From: Botryllus schlosseri
Lineage: Eukaryota
Assembly (NCBI GenBank): GCA_051294905.1
Contig: CM119372.1
Span: forward strand, 35,156,001 to 35,220,000
Length of the DNA: 64,000 bases
Direction: 5' to 3'
In this document: piece by piece, positions 1 to 59,704 of the stretch
Layout of the letters: every line of letters starts with the position of its first letter
Numbering within the stretch: position 1 is the first letter of the stretch
Program-made: the position numbers and the translations under genes
The notes under the pieces: model-generated
The model's input: the letters and a program-made list of their open reading frames with translations, nothing else
What the model was told of the DNA's origin: nothing
Databases searched by the model: none

Positions 1-2204
1 TCATAAATTATCATTTGAATAAGTAATTGTAATCATAAAACCAAACTTGCGAAAGTCATTACCATAACAAAAGAATATTGTAGGTTGCTTGCTAAATGTA
101 TGCCGGAAATATTTGTAGAACGCTCACGACCAAAGAAATCGGAAATCTCCCTATTGTCATTCGTCAAAGTATATGTTGGCACAATACTCATCCCGTAAAA
201 GATCCTACTTGTATCTGATTGAATCGCCGGTAATTAACTCGCTAAATCAAACCATAAGGAAATTTCACTCACTCATCGGATATGAAACAGCGTCGCTTAA
301 TCGGCGTAGATCGTTTTTCTAAATGCAAATCATACCTGACCAACAGAAAACAATTTTCACTCACCTTGTAATGAAACCAAGTGGTGGACCTTCGTTCAAT
401 ATTTTGTTTGTGTCAAATACTTTGCAATAAACACACTGGAGTGGTCGAGCTTTACATCAGCAGACTGCAATCTGTAAATCAAGCTTACATCCGACTTGTA
501 ACTGTATCGTTTACCTAACCAAGTTGTATGCACAGTTTGATATTTTTTGTTATTTGGTAATTGCTGAATATACTACTTCGAAATACTCCCTTGAACGTAA
601 TTTCCATCATCGTAATAATCGAAGTACATTTGTGTCGAATTCGTAACAGCCGACTATGACATGATAAATTTTTGACAAGTTATGCTTGGAAGATTGGTTG
701 TATATCACGAAAAATAATTACCGCTCATATTGATACTGTTATCCATTGTTCGGTATTTTCAAACGAGTAAAATTTATTACTTGAGTTACTCCGCTTAATG
801 CAAATGTAAACACAACCGTCTTTCAACATCACAAAGACATCGATACAAAGTATACAATCAAACGCAGCAAGTTTTACTTTTGTAGGTTGTGTATGATTAT
901 CCTGCATAACTCATTTCTTACCAAAGCCATATGAAATATATTCATGTTACACGAAAATATTCCCATGCTACAAACCTATACAATGATTGGTGGTGCTTTC
1001 AAAATGTTTCGATACCTCAAGAACTTTATTGTCTCAATGGATGTTCATACATCTTAATAATCAAATAGTTCAACACAGAACTAATACGAACAGAAACATC
1101 AGAGTTGTTTACACAAAAGTTTGTATGTGTACAGTATGTGAATACCATGTGTAAGTCCAGCCCAATTGTGGTATCCATCCGGGTTTAGTTAACACAATTT
1201 ACAACACCGAGGTCGCGTCATCTTTCGTAAGACAACAAACCAAGGCTTCAGGATATGTCCATGTCATAGCAATAAATCAGCTACTCCAACAACAGAGTGC
1301 ATATGTTTCTAGTTACGGTGCTTACATCTTACACACAAATCGACCTACTTTGCTAACGAAAAGTGCTGAGTCATCAACCGATTGCCCTAGCAACAAAACA
1401 GCTAAACGTACTATCATACAAAATGGCCGTTATAGTCACCAACGGTACATGGTACAAGTAACAAGTCTCGAGAATTCAGTTATTCAAAAAACGCGAAAGT
1501 GTTTCTATGCCAAGTCGTTATGTTTGACGAAAGCGTATATTGTAGTATTATGATCGATTTGCATTCGTTGGTCACAAAATGTCACTACTCTAAATAATTA
1601 TTTTTCACTCAAACACAAACGCGTACTTGTCACCAATCGTTTTCATCAAGCACGAGTTCAAGAAACCTGCTACGACATGAATTCCGATTTAGTTTTACAA
1701 ATATTTTATAATTGTTTTTATTAACACTATATCAATGTCATCAAGTTGAGTGTTTACGATATTAGTGTGTAGGTGTCTGTGTCATACTTGGAGGATCCGT
1801 ATTACAATTGACTCGAATTGACTAAATGTAAGAAGGGTTGAAATGTTTCGAATCGATTCATAAGTGGTCTTCGTTGTGGTTTTCGTCGGACATACAGCAC
1901 GAACTAACTGTAGACTCCTCTCTGTTGTGCAGCTACTCGGTAATCGAAATGCATTAACATGTAAACAACGATCTTGTTTTCGTCACACCAAAAATATGTT
2001 CACTATCGCGATACTCTGCACAAGACGTGCATAGCCTTTTCACACTCGTAATAGTATACCAACGTCAAGCGATAACGTTTAACAACACCAACGACACTAA
2101 ACCCACGACGTTTACCTATGTAAAATTACCACTTTCACTTGTCAGTCCATCGTTTACCTGACTAAACATATTATTTTCCTTTGGAGATCTGACGTTTACC
2201 CAGA

Positions 2205-2520
2205 GTAAGAAACCATTTTCACTTGTAAATATTTTTTTTTCCTCGGCTAACAAACCTTTTTTCACTTGTAAATATTTTTTTTTTCCTCGGCTAACAAACC
2301 TTTTTTCACTTGGAAATATATTTTTTCTCTGGTTAACAAACCTTTTTCACTTGGAAATCTATTTTTTCTCTGGTTAACAAACCTTTTTCACTTGGAAATC
2401 TATTTTTTCTCTGGTTAACAAACCTTTTTCACTTGGAAATATATTTTTTCTCTAGGTAACAAACCTTTTTCCCCGGGTAACAAACCTTTTTCCCTGAGCA
2501 ACAAACCATTTTCACTTGGT
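2205..2520. repeat. ~41-bp minisatellite, left arm (unit ~AACAAACCTTTTTCACTTGGAAATATATTTTTTCTCTGGTT)
   Basis: Visible tandem copies; mirror of 5260-5710. Confidence 0.9.
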
Positions 2521-5259
2521 GGTCCGTCGTTTACCCGAGTAAAAATATCGTTTTCTTTTGGAGATCCGGTGTTTACCCAGTGTAACAATACATTTTCACT
2601 TGGAAAAATACTTTTACCTAGAGTAGCTAATCATTTTCTCCTGGGTAACAACCCCTTTTCGTCTGGAAACTATCATTTACCTGAGTACCAATACAGTTTT
2701 CACTTGGAAATCTACCTTCTCCCTGGGTAACAATATCATTTTCGTTTTGAAAACTGACAACCACACCGGACAATTCGATATTTTTGTATATTGTTACAAC
2801 GGACAGCGACAAAATATACACCAACAACGACCCCGATACATTTGTCTAATCAAATATTCACTTGCTCTGATGCATCCCATCAAAATCATTGGTTACTCAC
2901 ATGTAATGCACTGTACATCGATGTGAATGTTTTGGAAAATTGGACAATAGACTTCGATAGTTCTGTGATGTCCGGGTTCGTGCTTTGGATTTTCAAGAGT
3001 CAAAATGTCTGAATAAAACACCTCCTCGACGATGGTTGGTATGTGGATAACGGTGTTCGGAAAACGGTTGGATTTATGTCACCCATCGCGATAACAATTC
3101 CAGGTCGAGTTTTCCCCCTGCATGTTTACTATATTGTGTCTTTATTGGTCAATGTATGTCTCGACATTCAGTTTGAAATCGGAAACCCTGATAAAGTATG
3201 TAACCGGATCCGGATATCAACTCTGAATCGATAAACCAATGAACAATATTCAAAGTAAACATGGTACACCCTGTGTTTCCACGAAAAATACCATCCAGAC
3301 ATACGTCGCGCTTGTTTGCCCACACCAGTATACACGCAAATGGAGGTGTGTGACATTGCATGCAATGTGTTGGTATACAAACATCGATCCACAGACATTA
3401 TCATAGCCGGTAGTTTTGATGTAGATCGAATGTCATCACACCCGATAACAATGTCATACCAATAAGCCACATTGCAATGACTCTGAGTCCGCGCTATTAC
3501 ATCGATATTTCGACACCGTTCACTGATTTACTCGATGGTTTTATCGTGTTGTAACATTACAAGATAGTCATGACCCTATCTGCAGACGGACCACCCAGAC
3601 CAATTGGATACATCGGTCAATATCGATCGTGTTGTCGACACCGAAGTTTTCTGCTGTAGCGTTTGACCATGGTGAACTATCGAAGTACGGTGCTCGAAAT
3701 GATTGCGATCAGTCTTTCAGACACGATGCATGGATGTCACTACTCCCACATAACGACTCCAGATAAATATCGTGAACAGTGATTCTGCAAATCTCGGGCT
3801 GATACTGTGATCCAATAAGGTGTGTTTCTGTGGAATGAAGACTGCAATCGTACACCACAATAGAACACTACCTCGCGATTTCACACGCAATCATAAAACA
3901 CATCATCGTAAGGGTCCAGTTCGTCTGGCAACATTTCGAAACGGTCATCGCCACAAGAGATCGAGGTTGCGCTCGCCGTATCGGTAGCATTTTGACACTG
4001 TCATCACCACAAGGCTATTGACGTCGTTTCGGTCGGTCATGTCAATCCGTTTTACAATTTACCGTTTTTCAACTCCCCGCACCATAGTGTTACGACACAG
4101 ACAAGAAGCGTCGGTGGAAATAATAAAACACGGAAAGCATACTTTGGTGTTATTTGACATGGATTTTACACCCGACGAACCTTACATTCGAGCGATGCAT
4201 TGGAATGACGCTTGTATTATTGACGTAGAAGGAACTGAAATGTATCGATTTATTGGTTTCGTACATTGGATATTGACCGATGTATCCAATTGGTCTGGGT
4301 GGTCTGTCCGGAGATAGGGCTATGACTATCTTGTAATGTTACAACACGATAACACCATCGAGTAAATCAGTGAACGGTGTCGAAATATCGATGTAATAGC
4401 GCGGACTCAGAGTCATTGCAATGTGGCTTATTGTTATTGTTATCGGGTGTGATGACATTCGATCTACATCAAAACTACCGGCTATGATAATGTCTGTGGA
4501 TCGATGTTTGTATACCAACACATTGCATGCAATGTCACACACCTCCATTTACGCGTATACTGTTGTGGGCAAACAAGCGCGACGTATGTCTGGATGGTAT
4601 TTTTTCGTGGAATGTAACATGTTTACTTTGAATATTGTTCATTGGTTTATCGATTCAGAGTTGATATCCGGATCCGGTTACATACTTTATCAGGGTTTCC
4701 GATTTCAAACTGAATGTCGAGACATACATTGACCAATAAAGACACAATATAGTAAACATGCGGGGGAAAACTCGACCTGGAATTGTTATCGCGATGGGTG
4801 ACATAAATCCAACCGTCTTCCGAACCCCGTTATCCACATACCAACCATCGTCGAGGAGGTGTTTTATTCAGACATTTTGACTCTGGAAAATCCAAAGCAC
4901 GAACCCGGACATCACAGAACTATCGAAGTCTATTGTCCAATTTTCCAAAACATGCATTTCGGTGTACAAGAGGATATTGTATGTGGGTAACCGATGATAT
5001 TGATGTGATACGACTGAAGGGGGTATACTCTGAAACCGGTAGTCCGTGTATATTTCCGTCACTGTTCGTTGTAATCTATTTCAAACTATCGTCAATACAA
5101 CAAATACCAAATTGTCAGGTGTGTTTGTCAGATTTCAAAATGAAAATGGTTTTGTTACTCTAGGAAAAGCTAGATGACCAAGAGAAAATGTATTGTTACA
5201 CTGGGTAAACGCCAGATCTCCAAAGGAAAATGATATTTTTAGTCAGGTAAACGACGACC

Positions 5260-5710
5260 CGCCAAGTGAAAATGGTTTGTTGCTCAAGGAAAAAATATAT
5301 TTCCAAGCGAAAAAGGTTTGTTACCCAGGGAAAAAAATATATTTCCAAGTGAAAAAGGTTTGTTACCCAAGAAAAAATATATTTGCAAGTGAAAATGGTT
5401 TGTTGCTCAGGGAAAAAGGTTTGTTACCCGGGGAAAAAATATATTTCCAAGTGAAAAAGGTTTGTTAACCAGAGAAAAAATATATTTCCAAGTGAAAAAG
5501 GTTTGTTACCCAGAGAAAAAATATATTTCCAAGTGAAAAAGGATTGTTACCAAGAAGAAAAAAATATTTCCAAGTGAAAAAGGTTTGTTGCCCAGAGAAA
5601 AAATATATTTCCAAGTGAAAAAGGATTGTTGCTCAGGAAAAAATATATTTCCAAGTGAAAAAAGGTTTGTTAGCCGAGGAAAAAATATATTTACAAGTGA
5701 AAATGGTTTC
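5260..5710. repeat. ~41-bp minisatellite, right arm (unit ~CCAAGTGAAAAAGGTTTGTTACCCAGAGAAAAAATATATTT), more copies than left arm
   Basis: Visible tandem copies; produces the repetitive spurious ORFs 5193..5468 and 5585..5803 (KIYFQVKKVC). Confidence 0.9.
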
Positions 5711-8700
5711 TTACTCTGGGTAAACGTCAGATCTCCAAAGGAAAATAATATGTTTAGTCAGGTAAACGATGGACTGGCAAGTGAAAGTGGTAATTTTACA
5801 TAGGTAAACGTCGTGGGTTTAGTGTCGTTGGTGTTGTTAAACGTTATCGCTTGACGTTGGTATACTATTACGAGTGTGAAAAGGCTATGCACGTCTTGTG
5901 CAGAGTATCGCGATAGTGAACATATTTTTGGTGTGACGAAACAAGATCGTTGTTTACATGTTAATGCATTTCGATTACCGAGTAGCTGCACAACAGAGAG
6001 GAGTCTACAGTTAGTTCGTGCTGTATGTCCGACGAAAACCACAACGAAGACCACTTATGAATCGATTCGAAACATTTCAACCCTTCTTACATTTAGTCAA
6101 TTCGAGTCAATTGTAATACGGATCCTCCAAGTATGACACAGACACCTACACACTAATATCGTAAACACTCAACTTGATGACATTGATATAGTGTTAATAA
6201 AAACAATTATAAAATATTTGTAAAACTAAATCGGAATTCATGTCGTAGCAGGTTTCTTGAACTCGTGCTTGATGAAAACGATTGGTGACAAGTACGCGTT
6301 TGTGTTTGAGTGAAAAATAATTATTTAGAGTAGTGACATTTTGTGACCAACGAATGCAAATCGATCATAATACTACAATATACGCTTTCGTCAAACATAA
6401 CGACTTGGCATAGAAACACTTTCGCGTTTTTTGAATAACTGAATTCTCGAGACTTGTTACTTGTACCATGTACCGTTGGTGACTATAACGGCCATTTTGT
6501 ATGATAGTACGTTTAGCTGTTTTGTTGCTAGGGCAATCGGTTGATGACTCAGCACTTTTCGTTAGCAAAGTAGGTCGATTTGTGTGTAAGATGTAAGCAC
6601 CGTAACTAGAAACATATGCACTCTGTTGTTGGAGTAGCTGATTTATTGCTATGACATGGACATATCCTGAAGCCTTGGTTTGTTGTCTTACGAAAGATGA
6701 CGCGACCTCGGTGTTGTAAATTGTGTTAACTAAACCCGGATGGATACCACAATTGGGCTGGACTTACACATGGTATTCACATACTGTACACATACAAACT
6801 TTTGTGTAAACAACTCTGATGTTTCTGTTCGTATTAGTTCTGTGTTGAACTATTTGATTATTAAGATGTATGAACATCCATTGAGACAATAAAGTTCTTG
6901 AGGTATCGAAACATTTTGAAAGCACCACCAATCATTGTATAGGTTTGTAGCATGGGAATATTTTCGTGTAACATGAATATATTTCATATGGCTTTGGTAA
7001 GAAATGAGTTATGCAGGATAATCATACACAACCTACAAAAGTAAAACTTGCTGCGTTTGATTGTATACTTTGTATCGATGTCTTTGTGATGTTGAAAGAC
7101 GGTTGTGTTTACATTTGCATTAAGCGGAGTAACTCAAGTAATAAATTTTACTCGTTTGAAAATACCGAACAATGGATAACAGTATCAATATGAGCGGTAA
7201 TTATTTTTCGTGATATACAACCAATCTTCCAAGCATAACTTGTCAAAAATTTATCATGTCATAGTCGGCTGTTACGAATTCGACACAAATGTACTTCGAT
7301 TATTACGATGATGGAAATTACGTTCAAGGGAGTATTTCGAAGTAGTATATTCAGCAATTACCAAATAACAAAAAATATCAAACTGTGCATACAACTTGGT
7401 TAGGTAAACGATACAGTTACAAGTCGGATGTAAGCTTGATTTACAGATTGCAGTCTGCTGATGTAAAGCTCGACCACTCCAGTGTGTTTATTGCAAAGTA
7501 TTTGACACAAACAAAATATTGAACGAAGGTCCACCACTTGGTTTCATTACAAGGTGAGTGAAAATTGTTTTCTGTTGGTCAGGTATGATTTGCATTTAGA
7601 AAAACGATCTACGCCGATTAAGCGACGCTGTGTCATATCCGATGAGTGAGTGAAATTTCCTTATGGTTTGATTTAGCGAGTTAATTACCGGCGATTCAAT
7701 CAGATACAAGTAGGATCTTTTACGGGATGAGTATTGTGCCAACATATACTTTGACGAATGACAATAGGGAGATTTCCGATTTCTTTGGTCGTGAGCGTTC
7801 TACAAATATTTCCGGCATACATTTAGCAAGCAACCTACAATATTCTTTTGTTATGGTAATGACTTTCGCAAGTTTGGTTTTATGATTACAATTACTTATT
7901 CAAATGATAATTTATGATCACTACTTTGAGCAATACAAACACATTTTTTTAGATTTCAGTGTAGCGCCTATTGCGATTTTGTTAATGCTATGAGTTTTGT
8001 GTATCACTCAAGTCTAGTAGAATAGGATGCGTCCAGTAAAGATATTCCAAATTGCTTCTGTGTTGATCAAAGTCTTGAAGTGTAAATCTGTAGACTTCAC
8101 AACATCTTAGAGAGTGCGAACGGAATTATGTATTGATCGCGCGCTTCAAACGGTACTCGATACCCAAAGTGATATTTTCACACTCTGTAAGTTGTGTATG
8201 TTTCAATGCGCTGTCACAAATCTCGACAATAAATCGTATCAATTGTTGGATTCAATAGTAACGCCGTGTCATTGTGATATACTCTACACTTAGTCGTTTC
8301 AATTACCCGTTGTGAATTAGACCAATAAAGCATTTTGCATCGGGTGTTGAATGTAATAATACCGATATTGTTGTTTCAACTTTAGTCTTGGTTACTGGAA
8401 ATATTTTCTGATATCCGCGATACGCAGAGTGATTTTTACCAAGGTGGAGTAATTTTCCTATCGAGAACATTTCAGACACACATAGTTTTGCAGCTTAATA
8501 TGTTAATAACATTGGTACTGAAAAGTTTGTTGCTGTCATAACATTTACCACAACGCGTGGTCTAATTAACGCAAATAATTTAATAATAAAATAATGATCA
8601 ACTATTATTAGTTTGCGTTTGAAATTTTGTCTAATCAATGTGTCAATCCTTATGTTTACATCATGATAATTTTCGATATAACACCTGCGTTCGATTGTAA

Positions 8701-11162: not shown

Positions 11163-11819
11163 CACGGGGCCTTTGAAGTCCATACTAATGCGTTCCCATG
11201 GGCGAGTGGCTCTGACAAGTTTATGATGCTCGGTGTTGTTGAAAAACCTAGGCTTCAATTCAGAGCATTGTCTACAGAAACCACAAACCTTTTTGACGTC
11301 TTATATTGAATATGGTAGGTTTTTGGATTTAACAAAATGACTTAACCTGCGGATGCCCGGATGTCCCAAGATGTTGTGAAGTTCGCGTAAATCAGTGGAC
11401 AAAGCCGTTAGACTGCAAATCCGAAAGATAGTGTCAGGCGCAATATTTTCTACTCCTGGCTTGTGAACAATCTCGTAGTCGAAAACATTAAGTTCCAGCT
11501 TCCACAGTGTCAATTTAGTATTTTTTATTTTACTGCGATGCTTTTTTTGAAAAATGAACGACAGGGCCTTTTGGTCAGTTATCAATCGAAATTTAGGACC
11601 ATGTAAAAGGTACCCCCACTTTCTTATAGCATGCATGATTGAGGCTGCTTCTTTTTCGACAGTAGGATAATTTAGTTCACTTTTAGCAAATGTTCGCGAT
11701 GCAAATGCCACAGGTCTACCTCGCTGACTGAGAATAGCAGCAATAGCTTTGTTGGACGCATCACATTCAATTTCAAACGGTTCAGATTCGTCAATATAAC
11801 AAAGGGATGATTTTATCAA
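11163..11819 (-). pseudogene. pol: Gypsy pol: RNase H plus integrase N-terminal HHCC zinc finger and start of core
   Basis: ORF 11301..11819 has ECDAS, EKEA, TDQK, NIAPD and HNILGHPG. Reading through the TAA at 11301-11303 gives DVKKVCGFCRQCSELKPRF...RPWERISMDFKGPV, ending at 11163. Confidence 0.93.
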
Positions 11820-12585
11820 GTCTTTCCTTCAGAACAATGAATGAGGTCAGGGCAGGCCCACTCAGTGGAAAAACTGAATTGCTAAGCATTGGTTTGATTT
11901 TATCAGAAAAGCTTGGAATCCACTTTGAATAATATGCGAACATACCCAAGATCCTTTTCATCTCTTTATCCGATTTAGGGGGTGGCAACTCAATCAACGG
12001 TTTCAGATGATCTGGGTCGGGTTTAATGGATCCGTGCGACACCAGATGGCCCAATAGACGCAGTTCACTGACGGTATAGACGGATTTGTTCTCGTTCAAC
12101 GTTAGTCGACAATCAGATGCGGCTTTGAGGAAAGCTTGAAGTCTCTCGTCGTGTTCCGCGGCATCTTTACCGAATATAGTGATGTTGTCCAAGTAAGCCA
12201 GAGTCCCCTTCAAATTGTAGTCGTCGATGAACGAATCGATAAAACGTTGGAACGCAGCCACTCCATTGGTGATACCGAAAGGCAATCTGCAAAACTGATA
12301 AAGGGAGTCGCAAGCTTCAAAGGCGGTAAACGGCTTGTCAGATGAAGACAGCGGGACTTGGTGATAAGCCGACTTCAAATCAATAGTCGAATATACTTTA
12401 CCTTTCGACACTTCATTTACGATAGTTTCAATTTTTGGCAAGGGATACGCGTCAAGCGGAGTATACCTGTTTACGGTTTGCGAATAATCAATGACAAGTC
12501 CTTTCTTGTGCCTGGAATCCTTCGTAACCAATACTTGAGCACGCCAAGGAGAACGAGAAGGCTCAATTATTCCTCCTTCGAGTAA
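11791..12585 (-). pseudogene. pol: Gypsy pol: reverse transcriptase (frameshifted to RNase H)
   Basis: IIEPSRSPW, IDY..VN, YPLP, IDLKSAYHQ, LPFG..N, YLDN, LGH motifs in ORF 11791..12612. Confidence 0.96.
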
Positions 12586-13404
12586 GGCCCTTTCCATACC
12601 GGATTTACGCACAAGTTCCGAAACAGGCGATGTTCACATAGAGAAAAAATTACCGAAACAGTTCCGAGAAAAGAGCGCGTTCATACCTATTTAGAGTTAC
12701 CGCGAACTTATGTTCATACCGGTCGTTTTTCGGTAAATTCGCGGAAATTATGGCCAGTATGAACGCGATTCTCCGTAAGTGTTGATAGTTACGAAACCAT
12801 GTCTGTGGGGTGTTCCAGTTGCAATATGCTTGTGGAAAACGATGTGGGAGAGGCATATTCGTGAGATGCGGAGAGGTTGGCTCCAACTTTTAGTTATGGG
12901 ATGTTGCGGATATGCTTTCTCGATGTGTATGGAGCTCTATACTCAATATACCTGTATCAGTAATAGAGCCCGAGCATGTTCCTGGCTTGTATATTATCAA
13001 CCGAAGCTGAGATCAGAAACTGAAAGCCAGCAAAGAGGATAGAGTCCTGGAATGAAAAGAACCACCGATCACATCTGCGTACGACAAAGTCAGTTTATCT
13101 TTGTGATTGCTGTATAATGGCTTGGGTAAATCTAATCTTATGTACACTGTATAGAAAAACCAGGGAATTCAAGAAATCCGTAAGAGAAACATTTGGTATA
13201 CTCTGCGACGAGCTTCGAGACCATAACGAAAAGCAGCCAGCAAATTATACGAACTCAATTTCTCTTGCTTGCTGAGTAGCTGTCGCTCTTTTGAGGCTAG
13301 CCAATGAAGCCAATCGTTTGTAGATCCAAGTAAACATCAGATGTATTTTAAGAAGGCAACTATGTCACAAGTTGATTTAAATAAAAATAATTGCTGGTGC
13401 CTGG

Positions 13405-13854
13405 TAGGGCTAGCCACAATGATTGGAGTACTCGAATCTGAATCGAGAAATAACTTTAATGATTCGAGTCGAGTAGTGAAATACTATTTTTCGAGTACTG
13501 AAATTATACTGAAAGTTGATTTACTAACGAGAATATACCGTAGTTTTGATACTATTTTTCACTGAGTAAGCCCTGAAACCTTGATTGGCCGTATCGCAAC
13601 ATACGTGATATAGTACAAAGCTACGAACGTTGCTGGAAATAACACATTTTCGAAGTCATGACCATCCCATAACACTGTCAAGCAGTGCAATGAAAATGGT
13701 ATGGTCGAAAAAACACCAGAGTATTTTTAATGTGACGGAAAATAGGTGTTCTACACATTTGAATTTTGGCATGGTACATTGTGTTGTGATGTCATCATGA
13801 TGATATACTCGACTCGAATCGAATTACTCAGGTACTCGATTTTGCCCAGCCCTA
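13405..13854. mobile_element. hAT-type MITE (TAGGGCT...AGCCCTA)
   Basis: Imperfect TIRs; TSD GTGCCTGG/GTGCATAG (6/8). Confidence 0.55.
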
Positions 13855-14430
13855 GTGCATAGTAATATTTCTATATTTGTCATGGCGGAATGTCAGCCAG
13901 TTTTTGCGTAGCATACCACTACAAAAAGGTCAGACAAATTTGATCTTGAATCTTTATGTTAGAAAAAGAAGTCTGAAAGACCAATTGTTCTTGCCAAGTA
14001 GGCTACTTTCTGTCTCAAAAGTAAGACCCAAATTGATGAAAAATAGACTTAAACTGGAACCTGAGCAGTCAACACAATGACTTGGACTCGAGTCATAAGA
14101 CCATGACTCGAACTCGACGCTCTGCTCAATGAGTTGGACTCGGATTTGACTCGGTGGTAAATTGAAAATGACTCGACTTGTGACTTGATTACAACCCTGC
14201 TCACTTATTAAGACTGAAATTGCTGAAAATGAGGCCTAATTTGTATAGTTTTTGTAGTGTAGTCAGACATGTACATCAACCTACTCATTTAGTTACTTTT
14301 AGTTACTAAAACTAAGTACTTCTAGTTGTGGATTTGAAAAAGTGAATAGTTTCTGGTTCTAGTTGCGGATATTTGAAAGTGAGTAGTTCTAGTTCTAATT
14401 GCAGATTTTGAAAAGTTGATAGTTCTAGTT

Positions 14431-15088
14431 CAGGGCCGGCCAACCGGTGGCCCGCGAGTTAATTTCCGAAATTTAGTAGTATTATCAAAAATGGACTGCA
14501 CAGACTGTGAACTTGCAAGGCCAATCAAAAATTTGATTAGTCTGGCCGCCACACTTGAGATGTGATGACTGAAAATCAGTTCCGACGCATTGGTAGATCT
14601 ATGAGCCAGTCACATTTTGGTAGATATTCGTACACTACAATAAAGCAGAATACTTTGCGATAGATTTATCAAAAATAAAAATTTTCTACACGCGTAGCGC
14701 AACATCTTGTCACTCGATTTCTTGCATTTAATATCGTTACCCCTTCGTGAAAATGAAATAACTCCTAATCTATCAGATTGAGTCTAATTATGTATATATT
14801 CGCGACCTTCCGTTTGCGCTCGCAGAAAGACCGTCGACTATGAAACCTAGGCACAAAGTGATTGCCGCATGTTGGACAAAGCTTTCGATATCGATATGTC
14901 CAGGTGCCGAATCGTCCAGTCCTTGCAAACTGAGCCCAGCGATATACAGCAGGCTTGCAATGTAGTCAAGTGACAATATTCTTAATTTATCAACTTCAGA
15001 AAGTTTTCGCGCTTAACGCGGCTAGTGGCCCGCAGAATAGTTCGTCAATCGAATGTGGCGTTTTGGCTGAATAGGTTGGCCACCCCTG
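14431..15088. mobile_element. hAT (Charlie/Buster-type) MITE inserted in an AGTTCT-rich repeat
   Basis: Ends CAGGGCCGGCCAACC / GGTTGGCCACCCCTG; perfect TSD TTCTAGTT. Confidence 0.85.
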
Positions 15089-16390
15089 TTCTAGTTACTA
15101 GTTTGAAAAATTGAGTAGTTCTAGTAGAAGTTGCGCATTTTGAAATTCAAGTACTTTTGTACAACTGTTGTGGGTGGATAAAAAATTACCACAGCAACAT
15201 TTGTACCAAACATGCATTTGCTGCAAGCTTTTCAGGATGACTTCATGATTGAGAGCCAGAGGGTTCCGTACTTCCCTGAAACACAAATAGAGCATAAGCT
15301 AAAGCTAATTTCAAATATGTAATATAAATTTCCTTTCTGCTGCCCTTAAAATTCACAATTGCTTTTTCAGAAACTTAGCAAAGCACACATGAAGGTTAAA
15401 AGATTTCGGTCGACTGAAGGCTTTACTCAGAAACTGCAATCCGCTAAGGCCAGAATGATACAAAGGATGGTATACGCAATGAAGACAAGACCTGGTGGTG
15501 ATCCAAGTATCGCTGGCCCAGACGTCGGAAATGCCCTGTGTGACTTTCTCAATAAACAATGCTCTTGCTTAACCAGATGTGTTTGTTTTATTCATGAGAA
15601 AAACTATAACTTAATGCACACTTTCACAGTTCCACATTTTTCATCAGTATCCTCCATCTAGACCTGCGAAAAGATCAGATTAAGTTACACTTGCATAACA
15701 TTGCATAACAAAGGAATGACTTGTTTGCAGCAAGAAAATGAAGGCATAGGTAAAAACCAAATTAAGGCTTGGATGATGTACAATGGTTTACCAGCCGTTG
15801 GTACAATTTCGATTTTGGTTGGTGATTTAGAGCGAAGGACATCATTCTCTGCTGTGCTGCCACTATCAAATCAGATGTTACTAAATCCCCTTTTCAGTAG
15901 GCGTATATGACGGTGTAACAAATTTGGTAAGGGTTAAGATCGCCTACCAAATTAGTGTTGAAGTCCTCAAGTTTTCAGGCAACTCACCCAATGCTGCATC
16001 ATTTGGAGATGGTGTTCTACATTTTTAGCCGTGCTCTGTTTACAAAACCACAGAAAAAGAAGCTGACTAGTAGTCAGTGACTACGTATTGTGAGCATACA
16101 TAATAGAAATCCAAGAATAATGAATTCCCAACACCATTACACAGGTAGCTGACCTCGAAATACAAGCAGCCTGAATGAACAGCGCGTTACCGTAACTAAA
16201 ATATTGATTGACAGCGTTCCGGGAACCCAGCTGCGCCATTCGTGTTCAACTGTTCATACTCAGTCGGTCCCGTAAAAATCTCCGAAAATAAGCGCGTTCA
16301 TACCGCCCCGAAAAACCAGCGTTATGTTCACATAGAGAGGTTCCGGTAAACATTTTCGAGAAATGTTATTCCCGGAACCCCGGTAGGGCC

Positions 16391-17740
16391 TAAGCGATTA
16401 ACTTCGTCCTTGATGAACGATTGATCTTCGCGACTATAATTTCTTGATGGGGTGGCGATAGGCTTGCAATTGAAATCTAGGAATCCAAATAGCTGAAGAG
16501 GTTCTGCCTTAGCAGGGGACAAAGCGCACGATCGACTTTGTATTGTCAGCGGTTCTTCGTTTCCGTCAAACTCGAAGATGACTTTCTTGTGCTTCTTCAT
16601 GAAATCATGACCAAGAATTACATCAGCGCACAAATCCTTAACCACCCCGAAAGTGACACCCACAGTTTCGAGATAGCATTTCGAAAGAAACAGTAAAGGT
16701 GCCGGAAACTTCGGCTGCCGCTGTCTTGGATGCGAGTGATATAGTAGTGGACTGACCTCGTGGCAGGAATCCTAGTTCAATGGCTAGCAACTCGTCCATA
16801 TAATTTTCGAAAGAGCCCGAGTCTAATAGAACGCCCACAAGTAATTTATGAATTTTAGCTGTGCATGACGCACGCCAGAGACAATTTGGAACTCCTGCTA
16901 GAAGCATGCTGGCGGTCGCTCGGATGTCATATAAATGAGGGGATCGACATACCTTTGCATAATGCCCCTTTCTTCCGCATTTCAGGCATTCGACGCCCTT
17001 TGCAGGACAATAGCGATTGTCTGCCACATGAGATCCGCCGCAGAAGATGCATTTGCGCAGTAATCTCGGTGCTCCAGGCTTTCCTACAGCGGCGGTAGAA
17101 TCTGTCCCGTGTTCCGGATCGCTTTGCCGAACTGCTGCAATTTCCGTAGAAGCGATTGTATCAGACAAATGAGGGTTGGCATTGTACGAGCTTGCGAACA
17201 ATTGGGCTCTTTCTAACGTGTCCGCAGTCTGGAAGGCTTTTTGCATAGTTAGTTCATCGCATTCCAGTAATCTTTGTCGAATTGCTGGGGACCTCAGCCC
17301 AGTGATGCAAGCGTCTCTTACAGCTTCCTCTTGTCTCTTACAGCTTCCTCTTTATGCTTTTGAGCATTTACGGCCAAGAAGTTACAATCTTTAGACAATG
17401 CCATCAATTTTCTAGAAAATTCTGACACGTTAACTCCGACCTCTTGCGTTGCAGTTGCTAGCAGATGTCGGGCGTAGACTTCGTTTTTCTTCTTTTTGTA
17501 AAGGGACTGCAGCTCGGTGATAGCAGCATCGTAATTATCAATTTCTTCAATAAATGAAAACACTTCAGGTGATAAATAACCTGACAATATAGCGAGCTTG
17601 TTTACATCAGTTGAAGGAGCAGTTATAGCTTCGATTAAACTCTTCAACATCCGCTCCCAATGAGAGAATATCTTCGCACTATCTGCAGAGTCTGGTAAAA
17701 CGTCCAACGTTGGAACTTTAATATACTTCACTCCAGACAT
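16391..17740 (-). pseudogene. gag: Gypsy gag plus aspartic protease (frameshifted)
   Basis: ATG at 17740 (MSGVKYIK). Zinc knuckle CLKCGRKGHYAKVC preceded by CIFCGGSH..C. Protease LLDSGS and ILGHDF. A 20-bp tandem duplication (17313-17352) and a shift near 16650 break the frame. Confidence 0.93.
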
Positions 17741-17776
17741 TACTACAGGCGATCTTTCTCCAAGCAGCGAGATACA

Positions 17777-17792
17777 ATTTAAGTTAGTAAAA
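17777..17792 (-). promoter_or_regulatory. Primer-binding-site position complementary to the element's own LTR (candidate self-priming site)
   Basis: Minus-strand TTTTACTAACTTAAAT lies 1 nt after the LTR end. It is a perfect 16-nt reverse complement of 17832-17847 and does not start with TGG. Confidence 0.65.
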
Positions 17793-17793
17793 T

Positions 17794-17866
17794 TGTCGTA
17801 CCAGTACACAGAAGACTCTTGTTTCGTTGGCTTTTACTAACTTAAATCTCGGCGTCAAATACAACA
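17794..17866 (-). repeat. Candidate 73-bp 5' LTR (TGTTGTA...TACGACA)
   Basis: TG...CA ends with a 6/7 terminal inverted repeat, 53 nt upstream of the gag ATG. The partner LTR is not in the window. Confidence 0.6.
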
Positions 17867-18544
17867 GTAACAGTAGCGATTTAAGTAACGGAGGAATTGG
17901 AAAATAATGATTAGAAAAGCGATGATTACGTGATGCACGATGGCTTGAATACAAAAGACTATACGAATCACCACAAAATGTAATAAGCAGGAAGATGCGG
18001 TTGCAGTTGCGGTCTCCTTAACTGGCATACACGTCGGCCTAGCGCCCGGTGTCGCAGTACTTTCTTCGATGTTTTTCTCTGTTCTGCGGTTCAATTTTTT
18101 GCTCTTTTCATGCCTTGTATATGCGCTCTTTCACGTGTCATTTTTTTTCTCGTTGTAAGAACGGCGACGTTAAGGGAAGAGGAGCCGAAAATAACCTCCG
18201 TCACGGAATTGGTCCCGGGCTGCCCGGGCGGCAGGCGTTTATCGTCGTCACTACGCTTTCTCCTCGCTAGCGATCGCGATAGTGCAAAGATTGTTTAAGT
18301 GCAATAGCATCACAACTAGAAATGAAATTAGAACCGACAGAATATACTCGTTGCGATTGTTCATAACTGACTGAATCGTCTGCGGCGTATTTAACAGTAA
18401 TAAAATTACAAATACAGTACAGTTCCAGAAAGTATAAACATATTCCCTATATTGTTTTCAGAGCGCTAAGACCAGGCACTGTAGATCTACGTGTGATTAA
18501 ATAGGTGTATTATCAGATTTCAACCATAATGTGTGGGTATATAG

Positions 18545-37517: not shown

Positions 37518-39071
37518 TAGGGATGGTGCGAACCAGGGTTGTAACCAAGTCACAAGGCTCCTAGTCCCATGTCAATCTCACTTCTATAGTTTTGACTCGA
37601 GTCTAGTCGAGTCATTTTCAATTCACCTTTGAGTCAAGTCCGAGTCCAAGTCATCAAGCAGAGGGTCGAGTCCGACTTATGGTATTATGACTCGAGTCCG
37701 ATCACAAGTCATTATGTTGACTGCTCAGTTTCGAGTTAAAGTATTGGTAAACCCACTTTATATAACTTTGTTAGGCGATATTGAATGGTTCGCATTTATA
37801 ATATACTAATTTTCCTCATTTTTCGCAATTTTGGTGGCGTTTTCAAGTACCATTACCAATAGACGAATTCCCAATAGGGTGGTTACTTTACTAATCTTCG
37901 AAATTACAATGAAATGTCGGTCTTGACCATCTGAGTCTCGAGTCATATGACTTGGTTTGAGTCCGAGTCGAGTCAATACACAGATTGACTCGAGTCAAGT
38001 CGAGTCATCAGAAAACCGTGACTCGAGTCGAGTCATGACTCGAGTCATGACAACCCCGGTGCGAACCCCTGAAGGTTCAGGTTCGTTTGAACACGAACCT
38101 TTTTGAAGGGTTCTGTGTGAACGCGAACGTGAACTTTGTGACGTCATATTGCTAATTCCAACCCTACATGTCAGCGAAGTGATATATTATCAACTGAAGC
38201 AATCAAATGCTATAATAAACCCATAAAATTTATAACTTCTGCCGCTTTGTCAACAATTTGGACGAGGACCTGCGAGGGAATATGAGCTTACGCCTTGACG
38301 CTTCATTCCAGACCGGACAATGTATTCGGCATCTGACTATTACGACATTGGTATTGAGCAGAGTGAAAAACGGGTTTCTATACTTAAGTGATATTACCCC
38401 ATAAACGAGTTACACAGTAGCCAACACCCTAATCGCACTGATTTGGTTTTTATGATGCTGCAAACATATCAAATCAAGATAGATCCCGTATACCTGCTGG
38501 ATTTTCCACATTAGACAACGACGTATTCTTTATATCAATTTCAATGATTGGTTGAATGAAAAAGCATCATTTGCTGACTACCTACATGTCCAGTATTTCG
38601 ATATTGATATTGTGTGATTGCGGGTCATGCTCCCGGCAGAGACTCACTAAATATTCACAATAGGAAGGCTGAATATTTCGAGCGAACCTTAATAACAATG
38701 CAAGTAAAATTTCTGAGATTGGCAAGATGTATGCTCGTTTAGTGTTGATGTTTTTATTCTGCCAGCGCCTTGCATAGAGTGGTCTGAAGTTGAAATTCAA
38801 AGAATTTAAACCAAAGATGTAATATTCATGTGATAAATTGTAATCCATGAAAAAGGTTCACATGCAATGCAGAACCTACCGAATACTGTGCACGCATATT
38901 TTCTGTACCACCATCACTGCCGTTTGTTATGTATTTTTGTTCGATGAAAATAAAGACTCTCTCTCTCTCTCTCTACCAAGGTTCGTTTGTGAACGCGAAC
39001 CTCTAAATATCTGAATATCTTAGGTTAACATACATAGCGCGAACGTGAACCTCACGTTCACACCATCCCTA
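37518..39071. mobile_element. hAT MITE family A copy with a nested MITE in its TIR
   Basis: TAGGGATGGTGCGAAC...GTTCACACCATCCCTA; TSD TTAATCAT/GTAATCAT. Confidence 0.85.
37534..38058. mobile_element. hAT MITE (CAGGGTTGT ends, GAGTC arrays)
   Basis: Perfect TSD GTGCGAAC at 37526-33 and 38059-66; a related partial copy ends at ~14199. Confidence 0.88.
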
Positions 39072-43300: not shown

Positions 43301-46300
43301 TGGGTATTTTGAAAATGTGAGGTCTGAACCACAACCACTACAGGATAATCAATAGGGTGGAGTGAAAATGACTTTTTTTTTCCAATCGAGAAAAGGGCTT
43401 CCTCAATCCTGACAAATGACCTAAAACTTCAATAAAAAGTGACTTTCTTTGAAATCCCGTAACTTGTGCTGATGCTTCTGTTACAAGCTTTACATGTTGT
43501 TCCACTGTTTGATTGTGGCATGGATAAAACAACATCAGAGGCTTCTCGCGGCATTCTTCCAACTCTGCATCAGTTAGGTGCTGAATCGCTGGGGGAAGTT
43601 GTTGATAAGGTTCAATATCAACCAACTCGTGGTATGCCTTGGCTTCCAAGTTCAACTTTGGGACACAGAATAAACGAACAGGACCGCAGTTCAATTGGTT
43701 GGAACTGCTATGACTTTCAATGTCCACAAGTGAATTTTATTCAGCGGCATGCTTTCGAAACGCAAGCACCATGGTCACACCCTTATTTCGTATGTCTTCA
43801 TTATCATCTACCAGCATTGCAATCATAATATTTTCGGGGTATGCGAAATAACCGTTTCTTATCACCACATTCAAAGCAATTTTCCGAACGTTTCCGTAAG
43901 AGAAATTCAAAACCTGTTGAATCAAGTTGAAGAAGTTTATTCAGGATCCATGTGTTATATGTTTGTTTCGCTTGATCTCAAACCAAGTCGGAAAATATAC
44001 TTCAAGACAAAAACGAACCAGAATCTCCAGGTTCAAAGGCGGTTCATCAACTGTTACATATTACCGTAAAACTCTACACTGCATCCTAAAGTTAGCCATC
44101 TTGAATGCGAAACTGGTCCAACCTCCAAGTAAGCCAGATCATCATCAGCATTTCCTTGAATAATTGCCCAGCACATTCATAAGCATATAACTGGTCTTTA
44201 CTTAAGTCATTAACAATTTCCGATGGGAGCTTTGGCAAGGCCCTACGTGGTAGCGAGAGCTTTTTGAATTGAGTAACTGGCCAACAAGATACACTTCCAA
44301 GTAGTTTTTTTCAATTGGGTGTGACCATAAGGTCCTGGTGATTCGAAAACATGCCGCTGAACAAAATTCAATTATGGACATTGAGAGTCATAGCAGTTCC
44401 AACCAATTGAACTGCGGTCCTGTTCGTTTATTCTGTGTCCCATAGTTGAACTTGGAAGCAAAGGCATACCACGAGTTGGTTGATATTGAACCTTATATCA
44501 ACAACTTCCTCCAGCGATTGAGCACTTAACTGATGCACAGTTGGAAGAATGCCGCGAGAAGCCTCTGATTTTGGTTCATCCATGCCACAATCAAACAGTG
44601 GAACAACATGTAAAGCTCGTAACAGAAGCATCAGCACAAGTTTCGGGATTTCAAAGACGAGATGGCTTCGTTCGCCGAAAAATTAAGTCTCGTAAACTGA
44701 TGAAAAAACTTGACAAAAGAATGCATTTTCAATGAGTCGTTAAATGTGAGTGTTTCATTATGATGTTTTAAACCGATCTTAAAAGGACTGTGTTGTGAAT
44801 ATATTTGTAATATGGGCCCAGTATTCGGTATTGTCAGTGTGTTACTTTTCTTTAAAAAAAACTGATGACAGATCACAATTCGTCAGAATAAATGCTGAAT
44901 TTCAACAAAAATGTGCGTATATATTGTTTTTTGGCTATAACTCATTTTGTGTTCACAATAGAGAAAACTTTCTTCTGAAGACAGATAGAAACATGATGCT
45001 TCCACAGATTTTGAGCTATATATCATGACGCTACGACCAGCGGTTGCCGAGATGGGCCATTTTACCCCCCCACGTGCAGAAATTGGGGGGTTGCCGGCTG
45101 GAAAATGGGGGCAACATCCTGAAGTCACTTTTTATTGAAGTTTTAGGTCATTTATCAGGATTGAGGAAGCCCTTTTTTCGATTTGAAAAAAAAAGTCATT
45201 TTCACTCCACTCTAATAATCAACTGCCTCAATCACGGCGCGTGAATATGTTGTCGAAGTCACATGGGGTCATATCAGCACATTCATTTCATACCTTCGTC
45301 TGAACCTCATACCTTCGTCTGAACCTAACTCATAATTATATAGCGATCATAAATCCTTCGTGACTACGTACATACCTCCGTACTTCCGTACCTGCATGTA
45401 TATAATTTGGATTAAAATGTTTTACTCGATTTATACCGCAGTATAATTTGTGGTTTCGTGTAGAATGGGTGTATATTCACATCCGCATATTAGGAGTGGT
45501 ACACGGGTGGAAATACGCTCTATTCGAAAAGAGTTTACCTATTGGAAACCCATACCTCCATTTCGACCAGAGTAGCGAAGCTGACAATAATTTGACCACT
45601 TATGCGTCATTAATGCGCGACATGCCCAAATGTCGACACCCATTCTACTCGCCATTATCCTCACCATTACAGAGCCTTCGCACACCGCTGAACTACCTCA
45701 TCTTAAACCTGTGCGTATCGAACCTACTCGGCACGACTGCGAGCGCGTGCTTGGTCATCCCGGTAAACGCGCTCGGGGAGCAGATTTTCGGAAATTTGGG
45801 TTGTATGATTTACGTTTTCACCTGTGGAATGTTAGGTGGGTGTTATCGATATATATATGGACAGATAAACCCTTAAGGCAGGGGACGCAAACTCAAAGCG
45901 GGTTGTGGTTCACTTTTCCAATTTCGCAATGGCCGCGGGGCGCAAGAATGCAATATTGAGAAAAAAGCAACAAGTTTAGCAACCACGTTTTTAAAACTTT
46001 ACGCCAATACAGCGCTGTGCTCCTCAACATTGGCGACTGTAGTACATTTATAAAAGTAGTACAAATACAACAAGAAACATCGTGATAATCACTATCGTTT
46101 TATTTTGAAATAAGAGCTGCGCACGATACCTGACAACAGTTTTCATCGAATAAACACTATGGAATCAATATTGGGGCTGGCGAGATACGTTACTATAGCT
46201 GTATAGCAGAAAGACTGCCTCCTCCTAAAGCTTTATCATATGTGGGAAAGCCCTATACCGTTTTCTTTGCGTCTTGGTCTTGGCATTGTCTGGGTCATTA

Positions 46301-49300
46301 AACTTCGAGGCAATATGCCAATTGATATCGGCAGATCCTCCCTCGATGGCATGCCGTTGGCAGCGTCGAAGCCGTTTCAGCTAGTGAGGAATAATGATAT
46401 TTGGCTCAGACGAATAGCTTATTTTGGGACAACAACAACAATTTTTTGGAACAAAAATAAAATTTCGTATTTCAAAATACTTTACTTGTCGTTCTTCCGA
46501 ATTTCTAAATCAGCTGGCGGGTGACAAAATATGACCTCGCCGGCCGCGTGTGGGTGACTCCTGCCATAAGGAAATATTTAGTAGTAGCGATGCTACGCAC
46601 GTTCGGTTCATGCTCGTCTTCGGTATGCTGACATCTTCAATTCCAAGGTTGGCATTTTCAATAAAACTCCCATAACTCATCTTACCCGGTGAATAAGTTG
46701 GTGAAATATTATAATTATACAATGATGGTAACATTTTTATAGAAAATTCTTGTACTTCAACTTAATACCGCTCCATGCACGTCGATGACAGAGAAAAAGA
46801 ACATTAGACAAAAAAGTGAGCCCTAATTAGCAAAACACCCTAATATTCTCGAGAATTTTGCTTGCAATAGCACACCTGATTTTGGTTGTAAATGATAGAA
46901 TTAGTTCCCTTCCGTCACGGCTATACGTGCTTTGCACATAAAATATATGCAACCGAAAATGATCGCTGCAACAATGAAAATTCAACGACTGTCCCCGGAA
47001 TGTTATTTCGTGACGCGGAGTCGTTCTGTCGTGTGTCAGATATTTGTCAATCTGTACTGGCCCGCATTGTGTGTCAATAGTAGCGGTCTTCCGATCGGTA
47101 AATTCTCTAAATTACTTATTGCAAAAGTAATTGTCGATAATTTTGTATACCGCTCGCATCTTCTAGTCCGTGTAGCACCTGGCGTTACTGGCGAAATGCG
47201 TCACTCTCTTCAGCAATAACAATAATAATAATAACATGCAGTAAAACGATCTGTGTTTCAATTGGCATTGTGACGCCGTGCGTTGAAGTTCACACAAATC
47301 CACACATTTAGGTGGTTGCATCATTGCTACTTGGTAGCATTGAATACCTACGGACTATGTATGTTCAATGACTTTTCTCGACAACCAATAGCTGTCCAAA
47401 TATTATTTTTCTATAATTTTATTGGTGTTCTACATCTTTGCTTTTCAAACTGTTGGATGATACGGACGTGCATGGAACAAAAATTACAGCGAGGATGAAA
47501 AACGTGGTGCTGATGAAATCGTGCATATATTTCGTAATTTTTCTGACGTGGAATGATCTAAATAAACTTAATAGCATATTTAGTAGGGATGGTGTGAACG
47601 TGAGGTTCACGTTCGCGTTCTGTGTGTGAACCTCGGGAATTTAGAGGTTCGCGTTCACAACAGAACCTTGGTAGGTTCTGCACTGTGAACCTTTCTCATA
47701 TATTACAATTTTCACTTCAATATAACATCTTTGGTTCAAATTTATTTCATTTCAACTGCGGGCCACTCTATGCATGGCTCTGACAGCATTCAAAATCAAC
47801 ACTAAACGAGCACTTTGGCAATCGCAAAAGTTTTACTTGCTTTGTTACAAAAGTTTGCTCGAAATATCCAGCTTTCCGTTTGTGAATATTTAGTGACCCT
47901 CTGCTGTGAGCTAGACCCGCAATCACACAACATCACGAGCGACATACGTAGTCAGCAGCGAATGATGCTTATTCAACCAATCAATGAGATTGATATCGTT
48001 TTTGATGTAAAAATGTAGCAGGCGTCAATTTTGACTTCATATCTTTACTGCATCATTAATACCAAATCCGTGCGATTGAGGTGTTGGCTACGGCTATATA
48101 ATTTGTCGATGGGGTAATATCGGTAGCAAGTATAGGATCCCATTTTACACTCTGCTCAATATCAATGTAGCAATACTCAGACGCCGAATAGGCCTACCTT
48201 GTCCGGTCTGGCCTAGACCGTTAAGGCGAAGGCTTTTATTCCCTGGTAAGTCTTCGTCGAAATTGTTGGCAAAGCGACGAAAGATATTGATTTTATGGGA
48301 GTATTATATCCTTTGATTGCCTTAGTTGATACTTTTAGCTACGTTTAAAACGCCAATATGTACTTCAGCATTGTGGCATTATGTGGCCCGAGTCATCGCT
48401 AGGTATCGCGTACATTAATATAGGCTATCACTTCATTGAAAGACAGGGTTAGAATTAGCAATATGACGTCACGTGACGTCATGAAGTTCACGTTCGCGTT
48501 CGCACAGAACCTTTTAAAAAGGTTCGCGTTCACACGAACCTGAACCTTTCAGAGGTTCACACCATCCCTAATATTTAGGTACAGTCAATCCCAAAGTTTT
48601 TCTTTGCGACACGAAGACTATAATTTTGGGTCGCGACGGCACCAGAGCGATATTTTAACATGCATGTAATACTTCTTTAATTTCCTGCAAAAAATACTTC
48701 TTCGCGTGATTTCGTGTGACATGAAGGTATGTCGTTTACGCCGACATGCGGATGTGCAAAGCGCGGTACCAGAATGATCGGTGATGATAAAACTTAAGCC
48801 ATTATTGACCGTCGCTGGTGGGTCAAAACCTTCGATATTGATATGCCTAGTTGCCGAAATGGTTGCCACCGATGTATAGCGCCAGCCTTGCAATCCGAAT
48901 AGACGGTAGGGTCTACACATGCAACCTTAGAGGAAAATGATGAACCCAATTTTTAGGGCGGAGATAATAAAGTTGGATTAGCAATGAAATCGATCATCCC
49001 GTTCGTCAGGATTTATCAACCCAGGATTAAGGAAATCGGTAGATCGCAGCGCATAAAGTTGGTGTTAATCTCATGATTTAACAAACCGGATTAAACTATC
49101 GATAACTGCGTACCGTTCCTACGCAAAAATATTTCCGATAATGACCTACCGATTGTCAACTAGGTAATGGCTTCACCAAACAATCAACGAATTAAGTACC
49201 CGCGATTGCAGAGCGATATCAATATTCTATAATCCGTTTCTTAGCTGTACGGTACTAATTTGACACGACTTTCGTTTGGCGATGATGATAATTGTTCCTA

Positions 49301-58100: not shown

Positions 58101-58718
58101 GCATTCCACCAGAAATGGTCAGAATGGTGAACCAGTTTTAATGTAGGAAATCTCCACCTTTTAGATTTACAGTGTATAAGATTCAATTTAACTATAGTGC
58201 AGTGATTTGTTAGTAAATTGTCATCACAACCAAATAATTATTCTCGTGGCAATACAAACATGTCTGTGAGAGGCCAAGACGGACGTATTCAGGTATAGGG
58301 GCTCCGACTCCCTCTTCAAAATCCTAAACTTTAAGTTGCTGTCGCGCAGACAACCAATATCACTTCCTAATTCGTGTACCCGCCTCGAAATCTCGGATTG
58401 CACGATACCTTGATTGATCAAAGAGAATAACAGACATGGTGACGCCTGTATGACAATGCAGCCGTGGAAGTGACATTCACATTTACAAATTCAAATTACA
58501 AACAACGCAATAGCTATCCTCGTTTTTGATTGGTTACAACTATGCAAATTGCGTGATTTTGGGAATAAAAATGTTCAAGCTCTAGTCATTCATAATTGAA
58601 CATCGATGGAAAATTTTTGTTTATTCATCCTTACGACAGGTGAAGCATTGCCTCACTTGCCTCTCCTGACCCCACGTAATGGACGTATCACACCTTACGG
58701 TGGGTAATGGGTATGTAC

Positions 58719-59704
58719 TAGGGATGGTGTGAACTTGAGGTTCACGTTCGCGTTCTGTGTGTGAACCTCGGAAATTTAGAGGTTCGCGTTCACAACAGAA
58801 CCTTGGTAGGTTCTGCACTGTGAACCTTTTTCATATATTACAATTATAACATTATAACATCTTTGGTTCAAATTTATTGCATTTCAACTGCGGGCCACTC
58901 TATGCATGGCGCTGGCAGCATTAAAAATCAACACTAAACGAGCATGCACCTTGACAATCTCAAAAGTTTTACTTGCTTTGTTACAAAAGTTTGCTCGAAA
59001 TATCCAGCTTTCCGTTTGTGAATATTTAGTGACTCTCTGCTGTGAGCTTGACCCGCAATCACAAAACATCACGAGCGAAATACGTAGTCAGCGAATGATC
59101 CTTATTCAACCAATCAATAAGATTGATATCGTTTTCTGATGTAAAAATTCGAGAAGGCGTACGGGGTCAATCATGACTCAATATCTTTACTACATCATTA
59201 AAACCAAATCCGTGTGATTGAGGGGTTGACTACTGCTGTATAACTTCTTAATGGGGTGATATCGGTAGCAAGTATAGAAACCCATTATACATTCTGCTCA
59301 ATATCAATGTAGCAATACCCAGACGCCGAATACGTTGTCCGGTCTGGCCTAGACCGTTAAGGGGTAAGTGTATATTCCCTGATAAGTCCTTGTCGAAATT
59401 GTTGCCAAAGCGACGGAAGATATTGATTTTATAGGAGTATTATATCAATTGATTGCCCCAGTTGATACATTTAGCGACGTTTAAAACGCATCGGCATTGT
59501 TGCATTATGTGATCCGAGTCGTCGCTAGGTATCGTGTACAACTGTACAATAATATAGGATATCACTTCATTGAAAGAGAGGGTTGGAATTAGCAATATGA
59601 CGTCACGTGACGTCATGAGGTTCACGTTCGCGTTCACACAGAACCTTTCAAAAAGGTTCACGTTCACCCGAACCTGAACCTTTCAGAGGTTCACACCATC
59701 CCTA
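58719..59704. mobile_element. hAT MITE family A
   Basis: Perfect TIR; perfect TSD GTATGTAC. Confidence 0.93.

Follow-up and report, generated by a model that had tools for sequence, protein, structure and literature searches.

In the available literature, reverse transcription is known to be self-primed in Tf1, and the same has been predicted for the Tf1/sushi group, the Tcn1 clade and the Copia lineage TAR (PMC6317226, PMC4600332, PMC6934838). The primer site of Tf1 is paired with bases 1–11, and RNase H cleavage falls between bases 11 and 12 (PMC7175516). The corresponding text on Tj1 of S. japonicus proposes self-priming from sequence (PMC4600332), and extracts on the plant TAR lineage (Houba and Osr-1) and the moss Tcn1 clade predict it from complementarity between the LTR and the primer site (PMC6317226). 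Since TAR belongs to Copia, self-priming has already been predicted outside the Tf1/sushi group. In Tf1, a neighboring stem was reportedly also found to be needed (Lin and Levin, 1998), and the self primer is said not to be removed.

Culex Mag elements, as described in the available sections of their survey, have LTRs of 119–304 bp, mostly 5-bp target duplications, and primer sites for tRNA-Leu, -Ser or -Arg (PMC3286476). No description of self-priming in a non-chromoviral animal Gypsy clade was found in the open-access literature, as far as it was covered by listings, abstract openings and the papers cited here. To our knowledge, animal LTR elements other than those of the Tf1/sushi group are generally taken to be primed by tRNA. 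The accessible text of the mollusc and polychaete clade surveys (PMC6238403, PMC8556966) contained no passage with the term "PBS", and no primer-site analysis for MolGy, PolGy or LGF was found there.

The 64-kb stretch of Botryllus schlosseri DNA analyzed here (hereafter the window) carries a broken Gypsy element, which consists of a 5′ LTR, gag-protease, a 3.8-kb insert, RT-RNase H and a truncated integrase, without a 3′ LTR.

17975..17794, minus strand: 5′ LTR of 182 bp, TGTGG...CGACA (TG...CA), as delimited by the termini of contigs and reads at 17975/6 and 17793/4, with blastn against the window
17832..17847, minus strand: pairing arm, LTR positions 129–144, predicted to be the self-primer and the 5′ end of the RNA, complement of 17777–17792, with covariation in relatives
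17833..17838, minus strand: AGTAAA, a poly(A)-signal-like hexamer at the 3′ end of the arm, from the sequence, its function putative
17800..17831, minus strand: second short stem of the fold, GCCA (17831–17828) with TGGT (17803–17800), directly 3′ of the arm
17777..17792, minus strand: primer-binding-site position, 1 nt (A, 17793) past the LTR CA, without TGG and complementary to the element's own LTR
16376..17740, minus strand: gag, containing two Cys/His arrays, and protease, split across three frames, with the start ATG at 17740, from ORFs, tblastn with P0001 and homologues
12586..16390, no strand assigned: 3.8-kb secondary insertion in pol, TTA on both sides, ends GGCCCT...AGGGCC, contig loose ends at 16385 and 16391
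11163..12585, minus strand: RT (YLDN motif), RNase H and integrase start, truncated, 3′ LTR missing, from Pfam RVT_1 and RT_RNaseH and tblastn

A 73-nt segment of the minus strand extends from TGTTGTA at 17866 to TACGACA ending at 17794. It is followed by one A (17793), and direct sequence comparison shows that positions 17792–17777 are the perfect 16-nt complement of 17847–17832, as the first-pass annotation of this DNA had described. Perfect 16-nt inverted repeats with 20–80 nt spacing occur at two further sites in the 64 kb, near 32.9 and 55.3 kb. The predicted fold of the 81-nt segment has a z-score of −3.18, and none of 200 shuffled sequences was equally stable. Beyond the 16-nt duplex, 17776–17768 and 17851–17847 could add a 5-nt complement with a 5-nt bulge. 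The L007 family has a similar bulged extension. Such additional pairing may be fortuitous or a remnant of a primer that was slightly longer.

The limits of the LTR were taken from contigs of four public runs of the same organism (X1, X4, X5 and X11). Among the loose contig ends listed, divergence from the reference at 17975/17976 leads into a polypurine tract in seven contigs of X5, four of X4 and nine of X11, and into unrelated flank in one contig of X1. Two other X1 contigs in the same list leave the reference at the opposite side of the LTR, one departing at 17793 into unrelated flank and the other, with its loose end at 17818, passing from a variant form of the LTR end into flank that is likewise unrelated. 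The polypurine-tract junction is also present in RNA reads (seven in X21 and four in X23). Since both contigs and reads enter the polypurine tract at 17975/17976, this position represents the 3′-LTR junction of other copies, and with the ends at 17793/4 it delimits an LTR of 182 bp (17975–17794). The 73-bp LTR of the first-pass annotation is thus the 3′ 40% of the actual LTR, and the arm, which had been placed at LTR positions 20–35, occupies positions 129–144. The accompanying idea of an extremely short LTR with transcription starting 20 nt into it gives way to an LTR with an ordinary U3 of about 128 bp, which is a better fit to the self-priming model. A boundary at 17866 was rejected, since the lone loose end listed there, from X1, proved by eye to be upstream LTR sequence joined through an internal deletion within the LTR. 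Summed contig depth over 17775–17945 is several-fold above that of the gag interior, a depth that does not represent a copy number, and blastn found no second copy of the LTR in the window. Contig ends also cluster at 17996 and 18042–18048, where a short piece of another repeat lies just upstream of the LTR.

The element body shows the gag-protease-RT-RNase H-integrase order, the TG...CA LTR and the polypurine tract of Ty3/Gypsy elements, with target duplications seen in relatives only. The two Cys/His arrays lie in the ORF at 16638–17351. In P0001, the closest full-length relative, identity to the element is 59% in gag and 72% in RT. At 11163 the element gives way to other repeats. The insert at 16390–12586 presumably resembles a PIF/Harbinger-type non-autonomous element and itself contains nested repeats. 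ARAGORN predicted no tRNA genes in the window, and an Rfam scan over 17600–18100 gave one sub-threshold chance match and nothing else.

A gag profile search recovered 80 metagenome loci and 3 loci from the genome collection. Of 84 loci, 4 without a gag start and 10 with less than 200 nt of upstream sequence were left out before counting, and L084, a weak bacterial match, was kept in the count of 71 loci and left out of the family count. Scans of viral contigs gave one weak, irrelevant locus and otherwise no relatives. Perfect complements of 14–17 nt, located 1 nt past the CA, were found in the relatives with paired LTRs: L003, L004 and L005 (152 bp), L018, L026 and L031 (about 310 bp), and L042 (about 300 bp). 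Since both LTRs are present in these four families, the LTR end is set independently of the complement. Duplications of 5 bp at the target site are readable in L003, L004, L005, L026 and L042. L002, L008 and L060 are mismatched, with a complement of just 6–9 nt, and the other loci are cut by contig ends.

A fixed rule (CA near gag, an offset of 0–3 nt, and the complement upstream within the LTR end region) was then applied to all loci. A perfect complement of at least 11 nt just past the LTR CA was present in 45 of the 71 loci, the window included, and at 11 of 2275 control anchors, while many single copies score lower, the complement being shorter than 11 nt in the remaining 26 loci. When 70 loci were grouped at 80% gag identity into 24 families, whose diversity owes much to a small number of metagenome datasets, at least 11 of 12 positions paired in 21 families, in 1 of 321 control anchors and in 16 of 420 swapped site/LTR pairs; the family score is that of the best member, which favors the test set, and 12 positions were scored, with 20 used only for tie-breaks. 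The three families that failed are represented by L023, L041 and L056. Across families, the arm-site duplex lies 32–71 nt from the LTR end, and the paired fraction falls from 1.0 at position 13 to 0.86 at 14, 0.76 at 15 and 0.48 at 16, reaching a background of 0.24–0.33 from position 17. This drop beyond positions 15–16 indicates a duplex of defined length.

The compensatory changes that the first-pass annotation had proposed to look for were found. In an alignment of 14 families, hand-picked from the 21 positive ones, 96% of cells pair and 11 of 15 pairs have changed on both sides, a result matched by none of 500 shuffles in a control that ignores relatedness; slid registers of the same alignment pair at 30–48%. 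The 3′ end of the arm is ATTAAA in 10 of the 21 families; the others have related, AT-rich hexamers there. G is near-invariant at arm position −10, being present in 20 of 21 families. The arm is followed by (A/G)CC, from which a second stem of at least 4 pairs can form in 15 of 21 families, where 4.9 would be expected, under a rule set post hoc. The primer-site position is complementary to the element's own LTR in the window and most related families, and a TGG tRNA-type site is absent. A self-priming signature that holds across related families is therefore strongly supported at the sequence level. The tRNA-independent self-priming suggested by the first-pass annotation stands as far as a position-fixed, covarying complement in 21 of 24 families is concerned, and the mechanism itself is a proposal built on it.

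We consider that the clade probably primes reverse transcription with a piece of its own RNA in the manner of Tf1, instead of with a host tRNA. Transcription would start near the 5′ end of the arm (about 17847), so that the arm would form the first 13–16 nt or so of the RNA. The arm would then fold back on the primer-binding site over a 38-nt loop, whose first bases would form the second short stem. A cut between the last AAA of the arm and the next GCC, at the junction of the two helices, would probably be made by the element's RNase H. From the new 3′ end, reverse transcriptase would synthesize DNA across U5 and the remaining R (about 39 nt) and jump to the 3′ copy of R, where the arm would be restored. 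If the primer is copied in plus-strand synthesis, the binding site would be rewritten with every cycle, and the near-perfect covariation would follow from this. A likely poly(A) signal also lies in the arm, and the same pairing may hide this signal at the 5′ end. An 11-nt Tf1-like primer, suggested by the conserved (A/T)G at arm positions −11/−10, is disfavored relative to a longer one, since pairing reaches positions 13–15 in most families. All 16 nt are accounted for by the genomic LTR, so that no spliced leader has to be invoked as the source of the primer.

None of the runs listed as carrying the element is annotated as RNA. RNA reads were taken from four raw runs (3–6% of reads each) and gave 18–43 element reads per run, with no pile-up of starts at numbers too few to map starts or poly(A) sites. 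In three single-cell runs, the LTR reads are mostly in element-sense orientation, as judged from the library type, and sense reads pass from the polypurine tract into the LTR. Sense depth in X21, based on few reads, fades across 17828–17807. Visual inspection of the region upstream of the arm revealed no TATA-like motif shared consistently among relatives.

The source of the primer and the function of the duplex allow other readings. The duplex might be regulatory, hiding the 5′ poly(A) signal or aiding packaging, while a host RNA primes at an unrecognized site. A poly(A)-like hexamer does lie within the paired arm in most families, and the occlusion of the 5′ poly(A) signal by a hairpin in HIV-1 counts in favor of such a role. 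However, the partner strand lies 1 nt past the LTR CA in nearly all positive loci, which is the position that defines a primer site; site and LTR covary, which would not be possible if the site had to match a conserved host RNA; and a TGG site is absent. We therefore regard a purely regulatory duplex as unlikely. It is rather improbable, too, that the primer is self-derived from the 3′ R copy of the arm on the same or a partner RNA, cut just past the AAA of the poly(A) signal, and not from the capped 5′ end. The arm always terminates at a poly(A)-like hexamer and is covered by sense reads from the 3′-LTR side, pairing extends over 13–18 nt with ragged ends, and the upstream promoter motif is not clear, all of which such an origin would accommodate. 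On the other hand, it needs long-range or intermolecular pairing although a stable local fold is available, it would probably consume the 3′ R required for strand transfer, and the drop in pairing past positions 15–16 fits a natural RNA 5′ end.

Conventional tRNA priming at a TGG at 17803, with an LTR that ends earlier and an incidental inverted repeat, could draw on the sequence TGGTACGAC at 17803–17795 and is very improbable. No CA precedes this TGG, and contigs in the list of loose ends carry the stretch on to 17794/3 before unrelated flank, which places the TGG inside the LTR; the relatives with paired LTRs end at the CA preceding the complement. These contig ends and paired-LTR relatives contradict an LTR end before 17803. 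The chance that the complement is a fortuitous inverted repeat in AT-rich DNA is negligible, even though both arms are AT-rich and inverted repeats abound in the window, in view of the control rates of 11/2275 and 1/321 and the covariation.

An RT-RNase H search with P0001 returned 1165 proteins at E ≤ 1e-20, of which the best 120, query aside, are 52–69% identical. Named relatives among these best 120 of 1165 come from Styela, Ciona, Trichuris, Trichinella, Papilio and Apostichopus, an invertebrate-rich set, and the full-length relatives are mostly single polyproteins of about 1200 aa. The chromodomain family, PF00385, was detected neither in four scanned polyproteins nor in the best 120 of 1165, and the integrase end of the window's own copy is missing; two outgroup proteins do carry a chromodomain. 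Since no chromodomain family was seen in these relatives, the clade is not assigned to the chromoviruses. The RT tree comprised 45 rows (the window, 11 signature loci, 19 protein rows and 14 outgroup rows) and no Tf1, sushi or Mag references. Its 31 clade rows are monophyletic (100/100) on a stem of 1.33, apart from the outgroup rows, two of which bear a chromodomain. In a smaller tree, a grouping of the clade with the chromodomain-bearing P0136 and P0140 was not rejected (AU test, p = 0.283). An origin of self-priming independent of Tf1/sushi is plausible but unproven.

Two Cys/His arrays in gag are typical of Mag, and they are present in 92 of 134 proteins, a set that includes 11 outgroups and partial proteins. 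The earlier description of gag as "Mag-like rather than chromoviral" is matched, for the non-chromoviral character of the element, by the lack of a chromodomain in the proteins examined and by the separate RT clade, and the two arrays are a Mag-like trait. Compactness, LTRs of 150–310 bp and the 5-bp duplication are also shared with the Mag lineage (clades A, B and C, with MolGy3, MolGy11 and PolGy1 as neighbors), whereas the tRNA-Leu, -Ser or -Arg site given for Culex Mag in the available text is not present in the clade. The clade may be one of the MolGy, PolGy or LGF clades.

Tf1/Tf2 of S. pombe, Tj1 and the Tf1/sushi chromoviruses resemble the clade in their Gypsy pol order, the lack of a tRNA site and a site complementary to their own LTR. 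Unlike Tf1/sushi, the clade has no chromodomain family among the four scanned polyproteins and the best 120 of 1165 proteins, forms its own long-stemmed RT clade, and has an invertebrate-rich host range, with self-priming predicted from sequence. Its duplex differs from that of Tf1 in spanning 13–16 nt instead of 11, ending in a poly(A)-like hexamer and lying 32–71 nt from the LTR end. TAR and Tcn1, in turn, are Copia and chromoviral lineages, respectively, both in plants, whereas the present clade is animal Gypsy. We tentatively put forward, as a possibility more than an expectation, that a very large animal-wide non-chromoviral Gypsy clade (tunicates, nematodes, butterfly and sea cucumber) evolved self-priming independently, with one 13–16-nt element acting at once as the 5′ end of the RNA, as primer and as poly(A) signal, and a two-helix junction placing the cut.

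If true, such a widespread clade would widen the known range of self-priming, explain why annotation tools relying on a tRNA site overlook these elements or rank them lower, and presumably let the clade escape tRNA-fragment silencing. Since the leader is just about 70 nt long and covaries across families, the mechanism would be cheap to test in vitro. Clade members also occur in records labelled as bacterial MAGs (L082, P0090 and P0092), most likely as host contamination, and L082 retains the self-complementary site.

Elsewhere in the window, a giant palindrome spans 1–7917, with arms at 1–1979 and 5939–7917 that are 100% complementary and near-perfect symmetry further inward; it may reflect either a fold-back in the assembly or a genuine inverted duplication. 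Two MITE-like copies of about 1 kb, 87–95% alike and with terminal inverted repeats, lie at about 47580–48570 and 58715–59704, with inverted partial copies near 38190–38750 and 18755. The segment at 45406–45876 on the plus strand gives a weak match to the rhodopsin family 7tm_1 (E = 4e-5, under the curated cut-off) and is probably a host GPCR exon.
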